From: a virus
Lineage: Duplodnaviria > Heunggongvirae > Uroviricota > Caudoviricetes
Virus record (IMG/VR): IMGVR_UViG_2671180411_000016
Reading direction: 5' to 3' (one strand)
DNA: 40,851 bases
How positions within the stretch are numbered: position 1 is the stretch's first letter; every line of letters begins with the position of its first letter. The notes beneath the pieces were generated by a model. It saw only the letters and a program-made list of their open reading frames with translations, was not told the DNA's origin and made no database searches. A program made the position numbers and the translations under genes. Below are positions 12,673 through 40,851 of the stretch, in pieces.

Positions 12673-14067
12673 TGATTTCCATCAGCATTACACTCTGATT
12701 TTTTAATTCATCGATCACTTCCTCTGGACGGGAATCCTGATCGATAAATTTCAACGCCTGCAACACCCGAACCGCATCAATCTGACGTATATCACCGCCC
12801 TGACGCAATGACTGAACAGCCAGCGCGGAGGATGAGTCAAACACCTGGGCAGATACATCCAGTTCAGTGCGCACATCCACATTGCCACCGCAACTCTCTC
12901 CGATCCATTCCGCCATTATCTGGAGAATATTATCGAGGGCATCTTCGAGGGAGTTCGCCATTGTATAAAGCGGCGAGTTTTCCTGCATTCGCTCTTCATT
13001 AGTCTGATCAACAGATTTGGTGGATGTATTTTCAGCACGCAGAAGTTTAGCGCCGGCATGACGCATCTGATTTTCCAGCTTCTCAAGTGATGTTTCGCCA
13101 GATTCTATCGCTGCGCCACTATGTTCAACATATTCGAGGCCATTTTTTGTTCTGTCCTCAAAAATCGTAGCGGTGGATGCACCAACCGTCAGTTCTTCAT
13201 TCCTGTCCAGCCCGTAGGCCACCAGCAATGGAACGCGGGCAACATGAAGAATATTGTCCTGCTCGCTCTGGCTTTGCCAGTGCTTGATATTCAGCAAGCC
13301 AAGATTAAGCAATGGCGGTGTACCACGCATAAATCCTGTTTTCTTCGTGTACAGTGTTACCAGAGGAATATCATCACGGCTGGTATTCCATGACTCATGA
13401 AGCGTCCAGACAGATTNNNNNNNNNNNNNNNNNNNNNNNNNNNNNNNNNNNNNNNNNNNNNNNNNNNNNNNNNNNNNNNNNNNNNNNNNNNNNNNNNNNN
13501 NNNNNNNNNNNNNNNNNNNNNNNNNNNNNNNNNNNNNNNNNNNNNNNNNNNNNNNNNNNNNNNNNNNNNNNNNNNNNNNNNNNNNNNNNNNNNNNNNNNN
13601 NNNNNNNNNNNNNNNNNNNNNNNNNNNNNNNNNNNNNNNNNNNNNNNNNNNNNNNNNNNNNNNNNNATCTCTTTCATATCCGTTCGTGGATAGTCCACCA
13701 GCGCATGTGCCACACCATACTGAAATGCGAGGCTGAAAAATTGCTGCGCCCACACATCCAGTCGGCTCCCCTCCATGTCGATATTTTCTGCATATTCCCT
13801 GATTTTTGCCGGCGTTTCCTCACTCAATACTGTCGGCTCTGCAAATATGCGCCCAATATTTTGCTTGATGCTTTCTTCATACACAGGAAGTAGCGTAGCC
13901 ACAGACAGGCGTTTTTTATAAGCGTCTTCATCTTCGTTAGGCCATTTTGGGAGATAATTTTCCCCCTGCCTGCGCATTTCAAGCGTACCGCCCATCAGTG
14001 CGTCGTTAATATCCCACGCCTCCAGCATATCGTTATAGTCGAGGTTGGGTGTTGATATATCAGCCAT
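12653..14067 (-). CDS. portal protein (interrupted by N-run 13417..13666; frame not continuous as given)
   Basis: Two ORF pieces (13357..14067 N-terminal, 12653..13753 C-terminal) flank the N-run; position between terminase and head morphogenesis gene. Confidence 0.75.
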
Positions 14068-15377: not shown

Positions 15378-16455
15378 CACTCCTTACTCTGGCATCAACC
15401 ACATTAATATTGATCGCCACAGGCTGGGGATGTTCATTATCTTCCACCGTTTCGATCTCTTTGCGCAGCTTCTGGTTTTCCATTCTGCGCCGTTCAATTT
15501 CCAGTTCCCGTAGCCGCTTATCTGCACATAAAGCCCCGCCAGCAGAAAACAAACGCAACAATTCACGNNNNNNNNNNNNNNNNNNNNNNNNNNNNNNNNN
15601 NNNNNNNNNNNNNNNNNNNNNNNNNNNNNNNNNNNNNNNNNNNNNNNNNNNNNNNNNNNNNNNNNNNNNNNNNNNNNNNNNNNNNNNNNNNNNNNNNNNN
15701 NNNNNNNNNNNNNNNNNNNNNNNNNNNNNNNNNNNNNNNNNNNNNNNNNNNNNNNNNNNNNNNNNNNNNNNNNNNNNNNNNNNNNNNNNNNNNNNNNNNN
15801 NNNNNNNNNNNNNNNNNNNNTCTGCTATATCGCGCCACTGGTAGAGATGATTCTCGCCCCAGCAATAACGGCAGTTAACACGGCGAAATTGTGCAAGCTG
15901 ATTGGGGTCGGCCAGGACAATAGCCATCAACTGACTCACTAGTAAATCCAGGTCTGCGGTATAGCGTTTCTGGTACTGATTGCGGAAGTAGCTGATAGCG
16001 CGAAAAACCCTGGCATTTCTAAGCATACGACTGGCGTTGCTGTTAGCTGTCGCACCTTGCCCCTCATAACCGGCTAGTCGGTACGCCTCTGTCGGCTTTT
16101 TACCCTGAGCAACAAGCATCGCAAACTTAGCCTGCTGGTCAGAAATGCCGAATTCATCGGGACAGAACGAAAATTCCTCCGCGTCGCCCTCATTCAGGCC
16201 CGCATCGAATACTGGCTTTTTTTCCTGAGATTTTTCGTTCCGCTTTTGTGCAGTCTGCGCAGATTTTTTCTGCGCACTTTTTTGCGCAGTTTTGCACATT
16301 TCTGTCTGCGCATTTTTCGGAGTTTTTTTGATGTAACGACGGGCTGTTGCGTAATTCAGTCCCCTTGCTTCACACCATGCCACCGGAGATATACCGGAGC
16401 GGGTGTATTCAGCAATATACTCCTGCTGCAACGCCCCCCAGTCCGGTCTGCTCAT
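15352..16455 (-). CDS. terminase small subunit (interrupted by N-run 15568..15820)
   Basis: N-terminal HTH-like region, K/A/Q-rich linker, TEAYRLAGY motif typical of small terminases; overlaps the large terminase start. Confidence 0.8.
   Translation of the reverse strand: MSRPDWGALQQEYIAEYTRSGISPVAWCEARGLNYATARRYIKKTPKNAQTEMCKTAQKSAQKKSAQTAQKRNEKSQEKKPVFDAGLNEGDAEEFSFCPDEFGISDQQAKFAMLVAQGKKPTEAYRLAGYEGQGATANSNASRMLRNARVFRAISYFRNQYQKRYTADLDLLVSQLMAIVLADPNQLAQFRRVNCRYCWGENHLYQWRDIAXXXXXXXXXXXXXXXXXXXXXXXXXXXXXXXXXXXXXXXXXXXXXXXXXXXXXXXXXXXXXXXXXXXXXXXXXXXXXXXXXXXXXRELLRLFSAGGALCADKRLRELEIERRRMENQKLRKEIETVEDNEHPQPVAININVVDARVRSDEDDLSDA
16246..16330. repeat. five copies of TGCGCA (one TGCACA) each followed by a T-run, inside the 5' part of the small-terminase gene
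   Basis: Read directly: TGCGCA at 16256, 16271, 16283, 16307 and TGCACA at 16293, each followed by T4-7. Confidence 0.6.
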
Positions 16456-20091: not shown

Positions 20092-20738
20092 TTACTTTAA
20101 ACACTGCTCGGTTATGTATTGCTGAGCACCTTCAAGTTGGGCCTGCATCATTACCAGTCGTTCCCGGAGGGTGAAATAATCCCGTTCAGCGGTGTCTGCC
20201 AGTCGGGGGGAGGCTGCATTATCCACGCCGGAGGCGGTGGTGGCTTCACGCACTGACTGACAGACTGCTTTGATGTGCAACCGACGACGACCAGCGGCAA
20301 CATCATCACGCAGAGCATCATTTTCAGCTTTCGCATCAGCTAACTCCTTCGTGTATTTTGCATCGAGCGCAGCAACATCACGCTGACGCATCTGCATNNN
20401 NNNNNNNNNNNNNNNNNNNNNNNNNNNNNNNNNNNNNNNNNNNNNNNNNNNNNNNNNNNNNNNNNNNNNNNNNNNNNNNNNNNNNNNNNNNNNNNNNNNN
20501 NNNNNNNNNNNNNNNNNNNNNNNNNNNNNNNNNNNNNNNNNNNNNNNNNNNNNNNNNNNNNNNNNNNNNNNNNNNNNNNNNNNNNNNNNNNNNNNNNNNN
20601 NNNNNNNNNNNNNNNNNNNNNNNNNNNNNNNNNNNNNNNNNNNNNNATGGCGTTATCACGGTAATGATTAACAGCCCACGACAGGCAGACGATGATGCAA
20701 ATAACCAGAGCGGAGATAATCGCGGTTACCCTGCTCAT
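20092..20738 (-). CDS. Rz i-spanin (interrupted by N-run 20398..20646; frames on the two sides differ as given)
   Basis: N-terminal TM segment [21 protein letters not shown]; C-terminal piece contains the embedded Rz1 frame; ATG overlaps the endolysin stop (ATGA). Confidence 0.8.
20151..20336 (-). CDS. Rz1 o-spanin lipoprotein, embedded in the Rz frame
   Basis: 61 aa, lipobox VVGC, proline-rich (PPPPP, PPP) C-terminal part. Confidence 0.8.
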   Translation of the reverse strand: MRKLKMMLCVMMLPLVVVGCTSKQSVSQCVKPPPPPAWIMQPPPDWQTPLNGIISPSGNDW

Positions 20739-22673: not shown

Positions 22674-22788
22674 TTTTCCTCACATATGTCATATAGTAAA
22701 GGATTATATATACCGTTGTTTTGGACGCTCAAACAGCGAATCAGATCAAATAAAACGCACATTTGTTAACATTTACACAAAGTCTGCG

Positions 22789-22809
22789 TGGGATATTCTG
22801 AAAGAATAT
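22789..22809. promoter_or_regulatory. perfect palindrome GGATATTCT-GAA-AGAATATCC upstream of the lipoprotein genes
   Basis: 9 bp arms that are exact reverse complements, read directly. Confidence 0.5.
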
Positions 22810-23610
22810 CCATAATGTGGAGAGAATCTATTGAAGTGCATGGTGCCGGGTGCCTCCCGGTGAACAAAATGTTCGTGATACCTGTCGGCGACAGAAAAGG
22901 TTAATGGTATCACCCCACCGCACAGGGGGATTCACCATGCAGGAGTTTTCTTAGCAAACTCACTGCGCGCCCGGCAACTCCCAACCACATAAAATGCGGA
23001 GTTTGTGGCATTTATGCATATAACTCGCAGGAATTATCTTAAAAAACTGATGTCGATCCGGATTAAAAAGAAGCAGGTCATCATCAGATGACTGGAAAAA
23101 AGGAAAACAAAAAATACTCATCATACAGTTTTGATTGCAGGGATGAGCCTGCTATGCACAATATGCAGAATATAAGCAAGATAAAAATATGCAGGCATAT
23201 TATTTCGGATCTTGTTATTAACACAACCTTTTTAATAATCATTTGGCATACAATAAACCAGCCCAAAAAGAACCGCCTAAACAGGCGGTTGGTCAATACA
23301 AAGGATGCTTCGTCTTTATTATAGTAATCTGAGGCGTCGGGTGTCTTGTATCAGACAACATATTGTCCCGCTAAACAGCGAATTACAAACCACCCTGCAA
23401 TGATCTCTCATCTCATTTTATATGAGTTGACGACATCAGGATAACGCATCATCAGCCCCTGCCAAGAAATATCAAAACTCCCGCCAGCAATGTGTTATCA
23501 CAATATTGTAAAAAAAACACAGCACCGAAACTATAACTGGTCTCTGTTATAATTTGGAGCAGAAAGACCAGTTGCCCAACTAGCAGCATTCTCCCCTGCT
23601 TTCCTGACGT

Positions 23611-35456: not shown

Positions 35457-38066
35457 ATGAGCACAAAACCACTCTTCCTGTTACGGAAAGCGAAAAAATC
35501 ATCCGGTGAACCTGACGTCGTCCTGTGGGCAAGCAACGATTTTGAATCGACCTGTGCCACTCTGGACTACCTGATCGTTAAGTCAGGTAAAAAACTGAGC
35601 AGCTATTTTAAAGCTGTTGCCACGAATTTTCCTGTCGTTAATGACCTGCCCGCTGAAGGTGAGATCGATTTTACCTGGAGTGAACGCTATCAACTCAGCA
35701 AAGACTCCATGACATGGGAACTAAAACCGGGAGCAGCACCAGACAACGCTCACTATCAAGGCAATACCAACGTCAACGGCGAAGACATGACTGAGATTGA
35801 GGAGAATATGCTACTCCCAATTTCTGGCCAGGAACTGCCCATTCGTTGGCTTGCTCAACACGGCAGCGAAAAACCGGTAACGCACGTTTCACGCGACGGA
35901 CTCCAGGCATTACACATTGCTCGGGCTGAAGAACTACCGGCTGTTACTGCCCTGGCTGTTTCCCACAAAACCAGCCTGCTCGACCCGCTGGAAATTCGCG
36001 AACTCCACAAACTGGTTCGTGACACTGACAAAGTTTTCCCTAATCCTGGTAATTCAAACCTGGGACTGATAACTGCTTTTTTCGAAGCATACCTGAACGC
36101 TGACTACACCGATCGAGGACTGCTGACAAAAGAGTGGATGAAGGGTAATCGTGTTTCACACATCACTCGCACGGCTTCCGGTGCTAATGCTGGCGGCGGA
36201 AACCTCACCGATCGCGGCGAAGGTTTCGTACACGATCTGACGTCACTGGCGCGGGACGTAGCCACTGGCGTACTGGCCCGTTCAATGGATCTGGACATCT
36301 ATAACCTTCATCCGGCACACGCTAAACGCATTGAGGAAATTATCGCTGAAAATAAACCGCCCTTTTCTGTTTTCCGCGACAAATTCATCACCATGCCTGG
36401 CGGGCTGGATTATTCCCGCGCCATCGTGGTTGCGTCCGTAAAAGAAGCACCAATTGGGATCGAGGTCATCCCCGCGCACGTCACTGAATATCTGAACAAA
36501 GTACTGACTGAAACCGATCATGCCAACCCTGATCCGGAAATCGTGGATATTGCCTGCGGTCGCTCCTCTGCCCCGATGCCGCAGCGAGTAACAGAAGAAG
36601 GAAAACAGGATGATGAAGAAAAACCGCAACCATCTGGAACAACGGCAGTTGAACAGGGAGAGGCTGAAACAATGGAACCGGACGCAACTGAACATCATCA
36701 GGACACGCAGCCGCTGGATGCTCAGTCACAGGTAAATTCTGTTGATGCGAAATATCAGGAACTGCGGGCAGAACTCCATGAAGCCCGGAAAAACATTCCA
36801 TCAAAAAATCCTGTCGATGCCGATAAATTGCTTGCTGCATCACGTGGTGAATTTGTTGACGGAATTAGCGACCCGAACGANNNNNNNNNNNNNNNNNNNN
36901 NNNNNNNNNNNNNNNNNNNNNNNNNNNNNNNNNNNNNNNNNNNNNNNNNNNNNNNNNNNNNNNNNNNNNNNNNNNNNNNNNNNNNNNNNNNNNNNNNNNN
37001 NNNNNNNNNNNNNNNNNNNNNNNNNNNNNNNNNNNNNNNNNNNNNNNNNNNNNNNNNNNNNNNNNNNNNNNNNNNNNNNNNNNNNNNNNNNNNNNNNNNN
37101 NNNNNNNNNNNNNNNNNNNNNNNNNNNNNNGATCCGGAGGAAATGGAAGGCGCTGAACATCCGCACAATGAGAATGCTGGCAGCGATCCGCATCGCGATT
37201 GCAGTGATGAAACTGGCGAAGTCGCAGATCCCGTAATCGTAGAAGACATAGAGCCAGGTATTTATTACGGAATTTCGAATGAGAATTACCACGCGGGTCC
37301 CGGTGTCAGTAAGTCTCAGCTCGATGACATTGCTGATACTCCGGCACTGTATTTGTGGCGTAAAAATGCCCCCGTGGACACCACAAAGACAAAAACGCTC
37401 GATTTAGGAACCGCTTTCCACTGCCGGGTACTTGAGCCGGAAGAATTCAGTAACCGCTTTATCGTAGCACCTGAATTTAACCGCCGGACAAACTCCGGAA
37501 AAGAAGAAGAGAAAGCGTTTCTGAGGGAATGCGCAAGCACAGGAAAAACGGTTATCACTGCCGAAGAAGGCCGGAAAATTGAACTCATGTATCAGAGCGT
37601 TATGGCTTTGCCGCTGGGGCAATGGCTTGTTGAAAGCGCCGGACACGCTGAATCATCAATTTACTGGGAAGATCCTGAAACAGCAATTTTGTGTCGGTGC
37701 CGTCCGGACAAAATTATCCCTGAATTTCACTGGATCATGGACGTGAAAACTACGGCGGATATTCAACGATTCAAAACCGCTTATTACGACTACCGCTATC
37801 ACGTTCAGGATGCATTCTACAGTGACGGTTATGAAGCACAGTTTGGAGTGCAGCCAACTTTCGTTTTTCTGGTTGCCAGCACAACTATTGAATGCGGACG
37901 TTATCCGGTTGAAATTTTCATGATGGGCGAAGAAGCAAAACTGGCAGGTCAGCTGGAATATCACCGCAATCTGCGAACCCTGGCTGACTGCCTCAATACC
38001 GATGAATGGCCAGCTATTAAGACGTTATCACTGCCCCGCTGGGCTAAGGAATATGCAAATGACTAA
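35457..38066 (+). CDS. recE: exodeoxyribonuclease VIII RecE (interrupted by N-run 36891..37130)
   Basis: 869 aa ORF; N-terminal [39 protein letters not shown] matches remembered RecE; stop overlaps the recT start. Confidence 0.95.
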
Positions 38067-38868
38067 GCAACCACCAATCGCAAAAGCCGATCTGCAAAAA
38101 ACTCAGGGAAACCGTGCACCAGCAGCAATTAAAAATAACGACGTGATTAGTTTTATTAACCAGCCATCAATGAAAGAGCAACTGGCAGCAGCTCTTCCAC
38201 GCCATATGACGGCTGAACGTATGATCCGTATCGCCACCACAGAAATTCGTAAAGTTCCGGCGTTAGGAAACTGTGACACTATGAGTTTTGTCAGTGCAAT
38301 CGTACAGTGTTCACAGCTCGGACTTGAGCCCGGTAGCGCCCTCGGTCATGCATATTTACTGCCTTTTGGTAATAAAAACGAAAAGAGCGGTAAAAAAAAC
38401 GTTCAGCTAATCATTGGCTATCGCGGCATGATTGATCTGGCTCGCCGTTCAGGTCAAATCGCCAGCCTGTCAGCCCGTGTTGTCCGTGAAGGTGACGAGT
38501 TTAATTTCGAATTTGGCCTTGATGAAAAGTTAATACACCGCCCAGGAGAAAACGAAGATGCCCCTGTTACCCACGTCTATGCTGTCGCAAGACTGAAAGA
38601 CGGAGGTACTCAGTTTGAAGTTATGACGCGCAAACAGATTGAGCTGGTGCGCAGCCAGAGTAAAGCTGGTAATAACGGGCCGTGGGTAACTCACTGGGAA
38701 GAAATGGCAAAGAAAACGGCTATTCGTCGCCTGTTCAAATATCTGCCCGTATCAATTGAGATCCAGCGTGCAGTATCAATGGATGAAAAGGAACCACTGA
38801 CAATCGATCCTGCAGATTCCTCTGTATTAACCGGGGAATACAGTGTAATCGATAATTCAGAGGAATAA
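38059..38868 (+). CDS. recT: recombinase RecT (single-strand annealing protein)
   Basis: 269 aa from ATG 38059 ([41 protein letters not shown]...), matches remembered RecT. Confidence 0.95.
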
Positions 38869-38923
38869 TTCAGCCTGGCGGTGTAATGCACCGCCAACTT
38901 GAAATATTTTTATGAGAAAAATT

Positions 38924-39073
38924 ATGAGATATGACAATGTTAAACCATGTCCATTTTGTGGTTGTCCATCAGTAACGGTGAAAGCCATTTCAGGATATTA
39001 CCGAGCGAAGTGTAACGGATGCGAATCCCGAACCGGTTATGGTGGAAGTGAAAAAGAAGCACTCGAACGATGA
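38924..39073 (+). CDS. ralR: RalR-like zinc-ribbon protein truncated by an in-frame TGA at codon 50
   Basis: MRYDNVKPCPFCGCPSVTVKAISGYYRAKCNGCESRTGYGGSEKEALER then TGA (39071..39073); the next 14 codons in frame read NKRTTGNNNGGVHV and end at TAA 39116..39118, overlapping the ydaC ATG. Confidence 0.6.
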   Translation: MRYDNVKPCPFCGCPSVTVKAISGYYRAKCNGCESRTGYGGSEKEALER

Positions 39074-39110
39074 AATAAACGAACCACTGGAAATAATAAT
39101 GGAGGTGTTC

Positions 39111-39299
39111 ATGTATAAAATTACCGCCACTATTGAAAAGGAAGGTGGCACTCCTACTAACTGGACAAGATATTCAAAATCTAAACTAACGAAATCAGAA
39201 TGCGAAAAAATGCTCTCAGGTAAAAAAGAAGCAGGCGTTTCCAGAGAGCAGAAAGTAAAACTGATAAATTTTAATTGCGAGAAACTTCAGTCCTCGTGA
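39111..39299 (+). CDS. ydaC: YdaC-like small protein
   Basis: 62 aa from ATG 39111 (MYKITATIEKEGGTPTNWTRY...), GGAGG Shine-Dalgarno at 39101..39105. Confidence 0.7.
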   Translation: MYKITATIEKEGGTPTNWTRYSKSKLTKSECEKMLSGKKEAGVSREQKVKLINFNCEKLQSS

Positions 39300-39398
39300 A
39301 TTGCATTGTATTCAAATTAAAACTTCATAGCTGATTATTAATAATCAACATCGGGCGTCAATTTAAGTCTAACATTGGCGCCTGCCAGAGGTGATGCG

Positions 39399-39614
39399 AT
39401 GGCACAAGTAATCTTTAATGAAGAGTGGATGGTTGAATACGGCCTGATGCTTCGCACTGGTCTGGGGGCCAGACAAATTGAAGCATACCGCCAGAACTGT
39501 TGGGTGGAAGGCTTCCACTTCAAACGAGTATCTCCTTTAGGGAAGCCAGACAGTAAGCGAGGGATTATCTGGTATAACTATCCAAAGATAAATCAGTTTA
39601 TCAAAGACTCATGA
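39399..39614 (+). CDS. xis: excisionase
   Basis: 71 aa from ATG 39399 ([16 protein letters not shown]...), AGAGG Shine-Dalgarno; its stop is 1 nt before the integrase ATG. Confidence 0.75.
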
Positions 39615-39615
39615 T

Positions 39616-40851
39616 ATGTCTAAATTACCAACAGGTGTCGAGATTCGAGGTAAATACATTCGCATCTGGTTCATGTTTCGAGGAAAACGATGTCGGGAAA
39701 CATTGAAAGGCTGGGAGGTTACTAACAGTAACATTAAAAAAGCCGGGAATTTAAGAGCGTTGATAGTTCATGAAATCAATTCCGGTGAGTTTGAGTATTT
39801 AAGACGTTTTCCCCAGTCCAGCACTGGGGCAAAAATGGTGACAACGAGGGTCATAAAAACGTTCGGGGAGCTTTGTGATATCTGGACAAAAATTAAAGAA
39901 ACAGAGTTAACAACAAACACAATGAAGAAAACGAAATCACAATTAAAAACACTCAGGATAATAATTTGTGAGAGTACTCCGATATCGCATATTCGTTATA
40001 GCGATATCTTAAACTACCGGAATGAACTGCTGCATGGAGAAACGCTTTACCTGGATAATCCAAGATCCAACAAAAAAGGAAGAACCGTGCGCACAGTTGA
40101 TAACTATATCGCCCTGCTCTGTTCGTTGTTACGTTTTGCGTATCAGTCGGGATTTATATCAACCAAACCATTTGAAGGAGTAAAGAAATTACAGAGAAAC
40201 AGAATAAAGCCTGACCCGTTATCTAAAACAGAATTCAATGCATTAATGGAAAGTGAAAAAGGACAGAGCCAGAACTTGTGGAAATTTGCCGTATACTCCG
40301 GGCTTCGTCACGGGGAACTGGCTGCTCTGGCGTGGGAGGATGTGGATTTCGAGAAGGGAGTTGTGAATGTCAGAAGAAACCTGACGATACTGGATATGTT
40401 CGGTCCCCCAAAAACAAATGCGGGGATCCGGACGGTAACACTACTGCAGCCTGCTCTTGAAGCACTGAAGGAGCAATACAAACTGACCGGGCATCATCGC
40501 AAAAGCGAAATCACTTTTTATCATCGGGAGTACGGCAGAACCGAAAAGCAAAAACTGCATTTTGTTTTCATGCCCAGAGTGTGTAACGGAAAACAGAAAC
40601 CTTATTACTCGGTAAGCAGTTTGGGTGCGAGATGGAATGCAGCAGTAAAACGTGCTGGTATTCGCCGCCGTAATCCGTACCATACGCGGCATACTTTTGC
40701 CTGCTGGCTGTTGACGGCAGGAGCGAACCCGGCGTTTATAGCCAGCCAGATGGGGCATGAAACTGCGCAGATGGTGTATGAAATTTACGGTATGTGGATT
40801 GATGACATGAACGACGAACAGGTAGCCATGTTGAATGCGCGGTTATCGTAG
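39616..40851 (+). CDS. intR: tyrosine integrase (Rac IntR-like)
   Basis: 411 aa; N-terminal MSKLPTGVEIRGKYIRIWFMFRGKRCRETLKGW and C-terminal catalytic region (HTRHTFA...MGHET...Y) match lambdoid/Rac integrases; ends at the last base of the window. Confidence 0.95.
   Translation: MSKLPTGVEIRGKYIRIWFMFRGKRCRETLKGWEVTNSNIKKAGNLRALIVHEINSGEFEYLRRFPQSSTGAKMVTTRVIKTFGELCDIWTKIKETELTTNTMKKTKSQLKTLRIIICESTPISHIRYSDILNYRNELLHGETLYLDNPRSNKKGRTVRTVDNYIALLCSLLRFAYQSGFISTKPFEGVKKLQRNRIKPDPLSKTEFNALMESEKGQSQNLWKFAVYSGLRHGELAALAWEDVDFEKGVVNVRRNLTILDMFGPPKTNAGIRTVTLLQPALEALKEQYKLTGHHRKSEITFYHREYGRTEKQKLHFVFMPRVCNGKQKPYYSVSSLGARWNAAVKRAGIRRRNPYHTRHTFACWLLTAGANPAFIASQMGHETAQMVYEIYGMWIDDMNDEQVAMLNARLS

Follow-up and report, generated by a model that had tools for sequence, protein, structure and literature searches.

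The ralR toxin gene of a Rac-family prophage carries a genuine, derived nonsense codon, and quite probably this allele abolishes or attenuates the function of the encoded toxin while the rest of the toxin–antitoxin module remains intact. The window analysed here, a stretch of DNA of 40,851 nt, represents a large lambdoid prophage of the Rac family with tape-measure, minor tail, major head, head-morphogenesis, terminase, replication and SieB genes. The recombination genes and the interrupted ralR frame are arranged in it as follows:

35457–38066, + strand: recE (ORF list; PGAP annotation of identical DNA)
38059–38868, + strand: recT, immediately upstream of ralR (PGAP annotation of identical DNA; ORF list)
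38924–39073, + strand: truncated ralR ORF, 49 codons and TGA (translation; PGAP CDS of identical DNA in E2865, WP_001443846.1)
39068–39070, + strand: codon 49, CGA (Arg), the ancestral background of the TGA (CGA-TGG in Rac-SA53; AGA-TGA in 0 genomes)
39071–39073, + strand: premature TGA at codon 50 (TGG for Trp50 changed to TGA, G-to-A at 39073; K-12 and Rac-SA53 alignments, 70-mer counts)
39074–39118, + strand: former ralR codons 51–64 and TAA, NKRTTGNNNGGVHV followed by the stop (translation; K-12 and Rac-SA53 alignments)

Translation of 38924–39118 on the + strand yields MRYDNVKPCPFCGCPSVTVKAISGYYRAKCNGCESRTGYGGSEKEALER, a stop, NKRTTGNNNGGVHV and a second stop. The latter is the in-frame TAA at 39116–39118, which overlaps the ydaC ATG (39111–39113) in an 8-nt ATGTATAA arrangement that is the same in K-12. 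The 195-nt frame differs from that of K-12 MG1655 at two adjacent codons, 49 (CGA in place of AGA, synonymous) and 50 (TGA in place of TGG), and the segment 39074–39118 is 100% identical to both K-12 and Rac-SA53. Translation and the K-12 alignment thus bore out the initial annotation, which had described a 64-codon ralR with one TGG-to-TGA change. The toxin reading frame is interrupted at codon 50 of 64, and codons 51–64 are now untranslated unless the TGA is read through. An alternative in-frame ATG lies upstream at 38912 (MRKIMRYD...), likewise in K-12.

Alignment with K-12 ralR and a Rac-like prophage, the check that the initial annotation had proposed, placed Trp at codon 50 in K-12 and in Rac-SA53, and also in homologues from two other genera. 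Rac-SA53 (KU052037), which has ~92% DNA identity to the window over this segment, has a ralR that reads CGA-TGG and a ydaC that ends in TCG-TGA. The RalR homologues of Salmonella (81% and 76% identity) and Citrobacter (73%) read L-x-R-W-N-K/R-R, so that W50-N-K/R-R is common to K-12, Rac-SA53, Salmonella and Citrobacter. Because Rac-SA53 has CGA-TGG and the Salmonella and Citrobacter homologues have Trp, CGA-TGG is the ancestral form and the stop at codon 50 is derived. By this comparison the window lineage gained one G-to-A transition and the K-12 lineage the CGA-to-AGA change instead. Taking K-12 as the ancestral reference for every difference was rejected, since Rac-SA53 has CGA at codon 49 and a 62-aa ydaC and K-12 appears derived at both; among these differences, the TGA is the only derived one in the window. 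Rac-SA53, deposited as a 52-kb complete phage genome, retains TGG, and there is therefore no simple link between completeness of the prophage and the stop. Apart from the stop, ralR of the window differs from that of Rac-SA53 by six synonymous and two non-synonymous changes.

The distribution of the two codons was followed with a 70-mer centred on codons 49–50 in 5426 complete E. coli genomes, ~1,900 of which carry the ralR segment; a genome was counted when its best match was exact. The CGA-TGA form was present in 310 genomes, AGA-TGG (the K-12 form) in 1122, CGA-TGG in 119 and AGA-TGA in 0 of the 5426. These figures are minimum numbers per allele and no complete census: they are per-genome best matches in which the ends of alignments may be trimmed, and a genome with additional SNPs no longer counts as exact. 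The lack of AGA-TGA genomes fits a single origin of the stop on a CGA background.

We then considered what the shortened protein loses and keeps. The 49-aa product retains the four-Cys zinc ribbon (C9, C12, C30 and C33; CPxC ... CxxC) together with seven residues at the start of the C-terminal helix, and it still passes the curated thresholds of all three profiles examined. With PF14354 (Pfam Lar_restr_allev), the restored 64-aa protein scored 53.5 bits over profile positions 2–58 of 58 and the 49-aa product 39 bits over 2–52 of 58 (cut-off 28.6); with TIGR03655 the score fell from 55.3 to 40.3 bits, barely above the cut-off of 39.6; and with the RalR equivalog of NCBIfam, NF007260, it fell from 166 to 126.9 bits over positions 1–49 of 64 (cut-off 113). 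An exhaustive family search (E <= 0.001) returned 909 family representatives, and in the best 150 of these the matched part of the query nearly always reached residue 52–60. In a conservation alignment of 58 single-domain members of the Lar family, with 31–81% identity to RalR, only C9, P10, C12, C30, C33, W50, N51 and R53 were invariant in all 58. Three of these eight positions, W50, N51 and R53, are encoded only beyond the TGA and are removed by it: the translated product ends at R49, and has neither the W-N-x-R motif nor full-length profile coverage.

An AlphaFold2 model of full-length K-12 RalR, computed on the 58-member alignment (mean pLDDT 77), contained strands at residues 17–22, 25–30 and 36–40 and one helix at 43–52, followed by a low-confidence tail at 55–64 (mean pLDDT 60 for residues 51–60 and 44 for 61–64, with residues 59–64 below 50). 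According to this model, about five of the 15 lost residues would belong to the conserved fold and ten to the variable tail, and the truncation would shorten the only predicted helix. No solved structure of the family was found, the only sequence matches in the PDB being to CbpD, with no stretch significant on its own. A Foldseek search of the PDB with the RalR model returned generic zinc ribbons only (eIF2-beta, TFIIB-like, ELOF1 and RPC11; E >0.08, best 0.089), with no known nuclease fold and no functional lead. That no nuclease fold was matched is striking for a 64-residue protein with a reported non-specific DNase activity.

The 49-aa RalR is most likely an inactive or strongly weakened toxin, because the product lacks a W-N-x-R motif that is as conserved as the zinc ligands. 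As the whole zinc ribbon is kept and the RalR equivalog cut-off is passed, the product may have residual activity. A rival reading holds that the C-terminus is dispensable, the 49-aa zinc ribbon being still an active toxin or restriction-alleviation protein and the allele near-neutral. Such a reading, which we regard as unlikely, would be favored by a complete set of four zinc ligands and three predicted strands, by the location of 10 of the 15 lost residues in the variable, low-confidence tail, by the scores above the NF007260, PF14354 and TIGR03655 cut-offs and by the preservation of RalA. However, W50, N51 and R53 are as invariant as the zinc ligands across 58 diverse family members, the six profile positions that are lost carry ~14–15 bits, and nearly all of the best 150 of the 909 family matches extend through W-N-x-R.

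Termination at the new stop might also be incomplete. In E. coli, UGA followed by A, as found here, is not a strong terminator, and Trp, the natural near-cognate insertion at UGA, is exactly the ancestral residue at this position. Read-through by tRNA-Trp, perhaps at 0.1% to a few percent, might restore full-length RalR and leave a weaker but working type I toxin–antitoxin system; in favor of this reading, RalA, the pairing site and the 14 codons beyond the stop are all perfectly preserved. We consider this improbable, for four reasons. The 101-nt segment 39040–39140 folds no more stably than shuffled sequence (z = −0.24), which argues against a stimulatory structure downstream of the stop. 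None of the other Rac lineages and genera compared has the stop, so that nothing points to selection for it. Preservation of the downstream sequence is explained by overlapping functions (the ydaC Shine-Dalgarno sequence and start and the RalA terminator), along with the short evolutionary time. Finally, non-K-12 strains of E. coli have efficient RF2. Programmed recoding, whether read-through or selenocysteine insertion, was rejected: the position is Trp in K-12, Rac-SA53, Salmonella, Citrobacter and the 58 family members rather than a conserved stop, and the same fold of 39040–39140 offers no downstream RNA structure. It is likewise improbable that the UGA acts as a natural ~100-fold attenuator of a RalA-controlled DNase toxin, or that the 49-aa zinc ribbon has a separate non-toxic role; if the attenuator were true, a widespread lineage including O26, O111 and O103 STEC would keep a functional, weaker toxin.

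Loss or weakening of the toxin thus remains the preferred reading, and it concerns an otherwise well-preserved antitoxin side of the module, with these elements:

39117–39295, − strand: RalA antitoxin sRNA gene, full length, antisense to ydaC (Rfam RF02694, 225.1 bits against a gathering score of 170, model positions 1–179 of 179)
39046–39061, + strand: 16-nt RalA target site in the ralR mRNA (AAGTGAAAAAGAAGCA, codons G42–A47; from the sequence, site defined in PMC4041452)
39218–39233, − strand: 16-nt repeat inside RalA (complement of AGGTAAAAAAGAAGCA), which pairs with the ralR mRNA (from the sequence; PMC4041452)

The pairing of RalA with ralR through the 16-nt site was defined experimentally in K-12, where toxin translation is repressed in an Hfq-dependent manner (Guo et al. 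2014, PMC4041452). The same authors recorded a drop in CFU of about 10^3-fold with K-12 RalR. The RalA span of the window is identical to that of K-12 and matches the K-12 ralA coordinates, and the gene lies adjacent and convergent to ralR, as expected of a RalR/RalA system. The target site is intact, its 3′ end falling 10 nt upstream of the TGA, and both 16-nt repeats are unchanged relative to K-12, which preserves their complementarity. RalA is therefore most likely an antitoxin effectively left without a full-strength toxin, the situation of an orphaned type I antitoxin. The best σ70-like match in the region was found on the RalA strand at 39334–39361 (−), with TTGACG and AATAAT separated by a 16-nt spacer (10 of 12 positions); a start from this promoter-like match would be ~30 nt upstream of the annotated 5′ end of RalA.

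Downstream of the stop, ydaC has its own translation signals:

39101–39105, + strand: GGAGG Shine-Dalgarno sequence of ydaC, 5 nt from the ATG (sequence)
39111–39299, + strand: ydaC/rcbA homologue, 62 aa, with a complete DUF1187 domain (Pfam PF06688, 132 bits, profile positions 1–61 of 61; PGAP CDS)

The initial annotation had proposed that the stop uncouples ralR from ydaC, and the geometry agrees: a ribosome translating ralR now stops 37 nt before the ydaC ATG, where previously it stopped inside ydaC, and termination–reinitiation coupling is therefore lost in geometry. The effect on ydaC is probably modest at most and its consequence small, since a strong Shine-Dalgarno sequence, GGAGG, precedes ydaC itself and is not masked by any significant RNA structure. 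The idea that coupling is obligatory because the ribosome-binding site of ydaC is occluded was likewise rejected, with no significant fold in 39040–39140.

The ydaC genes of the window and Rac-SA53 differ at 8 codons, of which 7 are synonymous and 1 is a conservative replacement (S24T). This synonymous bias argues for ydaC as a translated, constrained gene; Guo et al. 2014 concluded that ydaC encodes no protein (PMC4041452). The ydaC TGA at 39297–39299 is common to the window and Rac-SA53 and is lost in K-12, whose 69-aa RcbA seems to have been extended by loss of this stop (TGA to AGA). An exact match to the 71-mer that includes the ydaC TGA was present in 568 complete genomes. Since the mapped 5′ end of RalA is at 39295, with the variable base (39297) 2 nt upstream of it, a change at this base could also influence the promoter or start region of RalA. 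We also noted in-frame RalR–YdaC fusion proteins of 67 aa and 96 aa in E. coli assemblies. The junction of the 67-aa fusion (…GSEKEA|GVSREQ…) falls exactly at the two 16-nt RalA/ralR repeats (39046–39061 and 39218–39233), and deletions mediated by these repeats apparently also occur, taking away the C-terminus of the toxin and a large part of RalA.

The TGA allele is a genuine, common and catalogued natural variant of a known gene. The 431-bp ralR–ydaC segment matched with 100% identity in 40 of 40 complete E. coli genomes among the matches listed, which came from many laboratories and hosts and included human clinical isolates as well as O26, O111 and O103 STEC. In the PGAP annotation the same DNA is a 150-nt ralR CDS (WP_001443846.1) without a pseudogene flag, at least 1000 contigs of the protein collection carry the exact 49-aa protein under the RefSeq/UniRef name RalR or Lar family, and three GenBank phage records carry an identical ralR–ydaC segment. 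A base-call error in this assembly with TGG as the true codon, which the initial annotation had left open and which a single-base difference from K-12 and the N runs of the window (as a possible sign of draft quality) might suggest, is ruled out for practical purposes by at least 310 independent complete genomes, produced by unrelated projects and platforms, that have the exact allele, by its presence in the RefSeq protein and in the phage and contig records above, by the linkage of TGA always to CGA and never to AGA, a haplotype structure that errors would not produce, and by the masking-like appearance of the five N blocks of about 250 nt (232–253).

Reference RalR proteins that end at the equivalent position, named in the initial annotation as evidence against a truncation, do exist in the formal sense; in substance these 49-aa references are the same allele, and more distant relatives show the full-length form to be ancestral. 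A literature search, part of it poorly targeted, found no paper specific to the 49-aa form. The sequence itself is already present in RefSeq, UniRef and GenBank phage records, and its type is familiar too: a toxin gene of a cryptic prophage with a nonsense polymorphism. In several TGA carriers, for example NZ_AP018808.1 (E2865) and O26/O103 STEC, the 431-bp and 70-mer queries matched two ralR-like places per chromosome, and in the same carriers the query for the 3′ end of ydaC matched one place only.

The main value of this observation is as an annotation caveat, and it opens no new question. In annotation pipelines the 49-aa product goes under the name 'endodeoxyribonuclease toxin RalR', free of a pseudogene flag, because it still scores above the NF007260 equivalog cut-off. 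Of the ~1,900 complete E. coli genomes with ralR, at least 310, major STEC lineages included, will consequently be scored in surveys of toxin–antitoxin systems as having an intact toxin although that toxin is probably disabled. Biologically, the locus would be one more prophage or chromosomal type I toxin knocked out while its RNA antitoxin persists.

In the course of events that best accounts for these data, ralR with the ancestral CGA-TGG underwent a single G-to-A change at 39073 within one Rac-family prophage lineage located beside ttcA, and the nonsense allele has since been inherited widely. The resulting 49-residue product keeps the zinc ribbon and loses W50, N51 and R53, the end of the helix and the variable tail. 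With RalA, both 16-nt repeats and ydaC unchanged, RalA would be left without a full-strength target, and ydaC would depend for translation on its own Shine-Dalgarno sequence and no longer on ribosomes coming from ralR. Against loss of function stands the lack of secondary decay in the allele, the downstream 45 nt being the same as in K-12; however, that stretch also carries the ydaC Shine-Dalgarno sequence and start and the 3′ end of RalA, and the lineage is young.

Several further features of the prophage were recorded. Between recT and ralR, a GC-rich hairpin at ~38874–38897 (GGCGGTG...CACCGCC) is followed by a T-run at 38905–38911, one T shorter than in K-12, and a simple terminator scan gave no call at this site. 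The N runs occupy 13417–13666, 15568–15820, 20398–20646, 30032–30263 and 36881–37130, one of them inside recE, and look like deliberate masks rather than assembly gaps. An Rfam match to the sRNA STnc100 (RF02076) lies inside the prophage at 22784–22970 (−), with 86.6 bits against a gathering score of 47. In PP818812.1 ('Actinobacillus phage vB_Apl-pPE4'), the ralR–ydaC segment is 90.5% identical to the E. coli Rac segment, an unexpected host attribution that may reflect contamination or mislabelling.

Among known systems, the Rac prophage of K-12 (ralR b1348, ralA b4714) has the same gene order, recE-recT-ralR-ydaC(rcbA)-xisR-intR beside ttcA, which in the window is completed by two genes downstream of ydaC:

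39399–39614, + strand: xisR excisionase (PGAP annotation of identical DNA)
39616–40851, + strand: intR integrase, at the prophage end that adjoins ttcA in reference genomes (ORF list; PGAP; K-12)

K-12 Rac is a 23-kb remnant, whereas the prophage of the window is large and retains head, tail and terminase genes. In the K-12 RalR/RalA system (Guo et al. 2014, PMC4041452) the toxin has 64 aa and ydaC 69 aa, compared with 49 aa and 62 aa in the window. A further counterpart is the Escherichia phage Rac-SA53, whose homologous ralR–ydaC pair agrees with the window in codon 49 (CGA) and in the length of ydaC (62 aa); codon 50 of its ralR is TGG, and it encodes a full-length RalR whose stop overlaps the ydaC start, in contrast to the TGA of the window. 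With the Lar restriction alleviation family (PF14354, TIGR03655), the product of the window shares the CPFCG...C..C zinc ribbon followed by a helix and passes both curated cut-offs, whereas the W-N-x-R that is invariant at the end of the Lar domain is absent from it. Decayed chromosomal type I toxin loci are known, for example the inactive hok-like genes of E. coli K-12 (PMC4041452), and there too a type I toxin gene was disabled by mutation while the locus persisted. Compared with those loci, ralR of the window carries one clean nonsense codon, its antitoxin and pairing site are untouched, and its inactivity is a deduction from the reading frame and family conservation.
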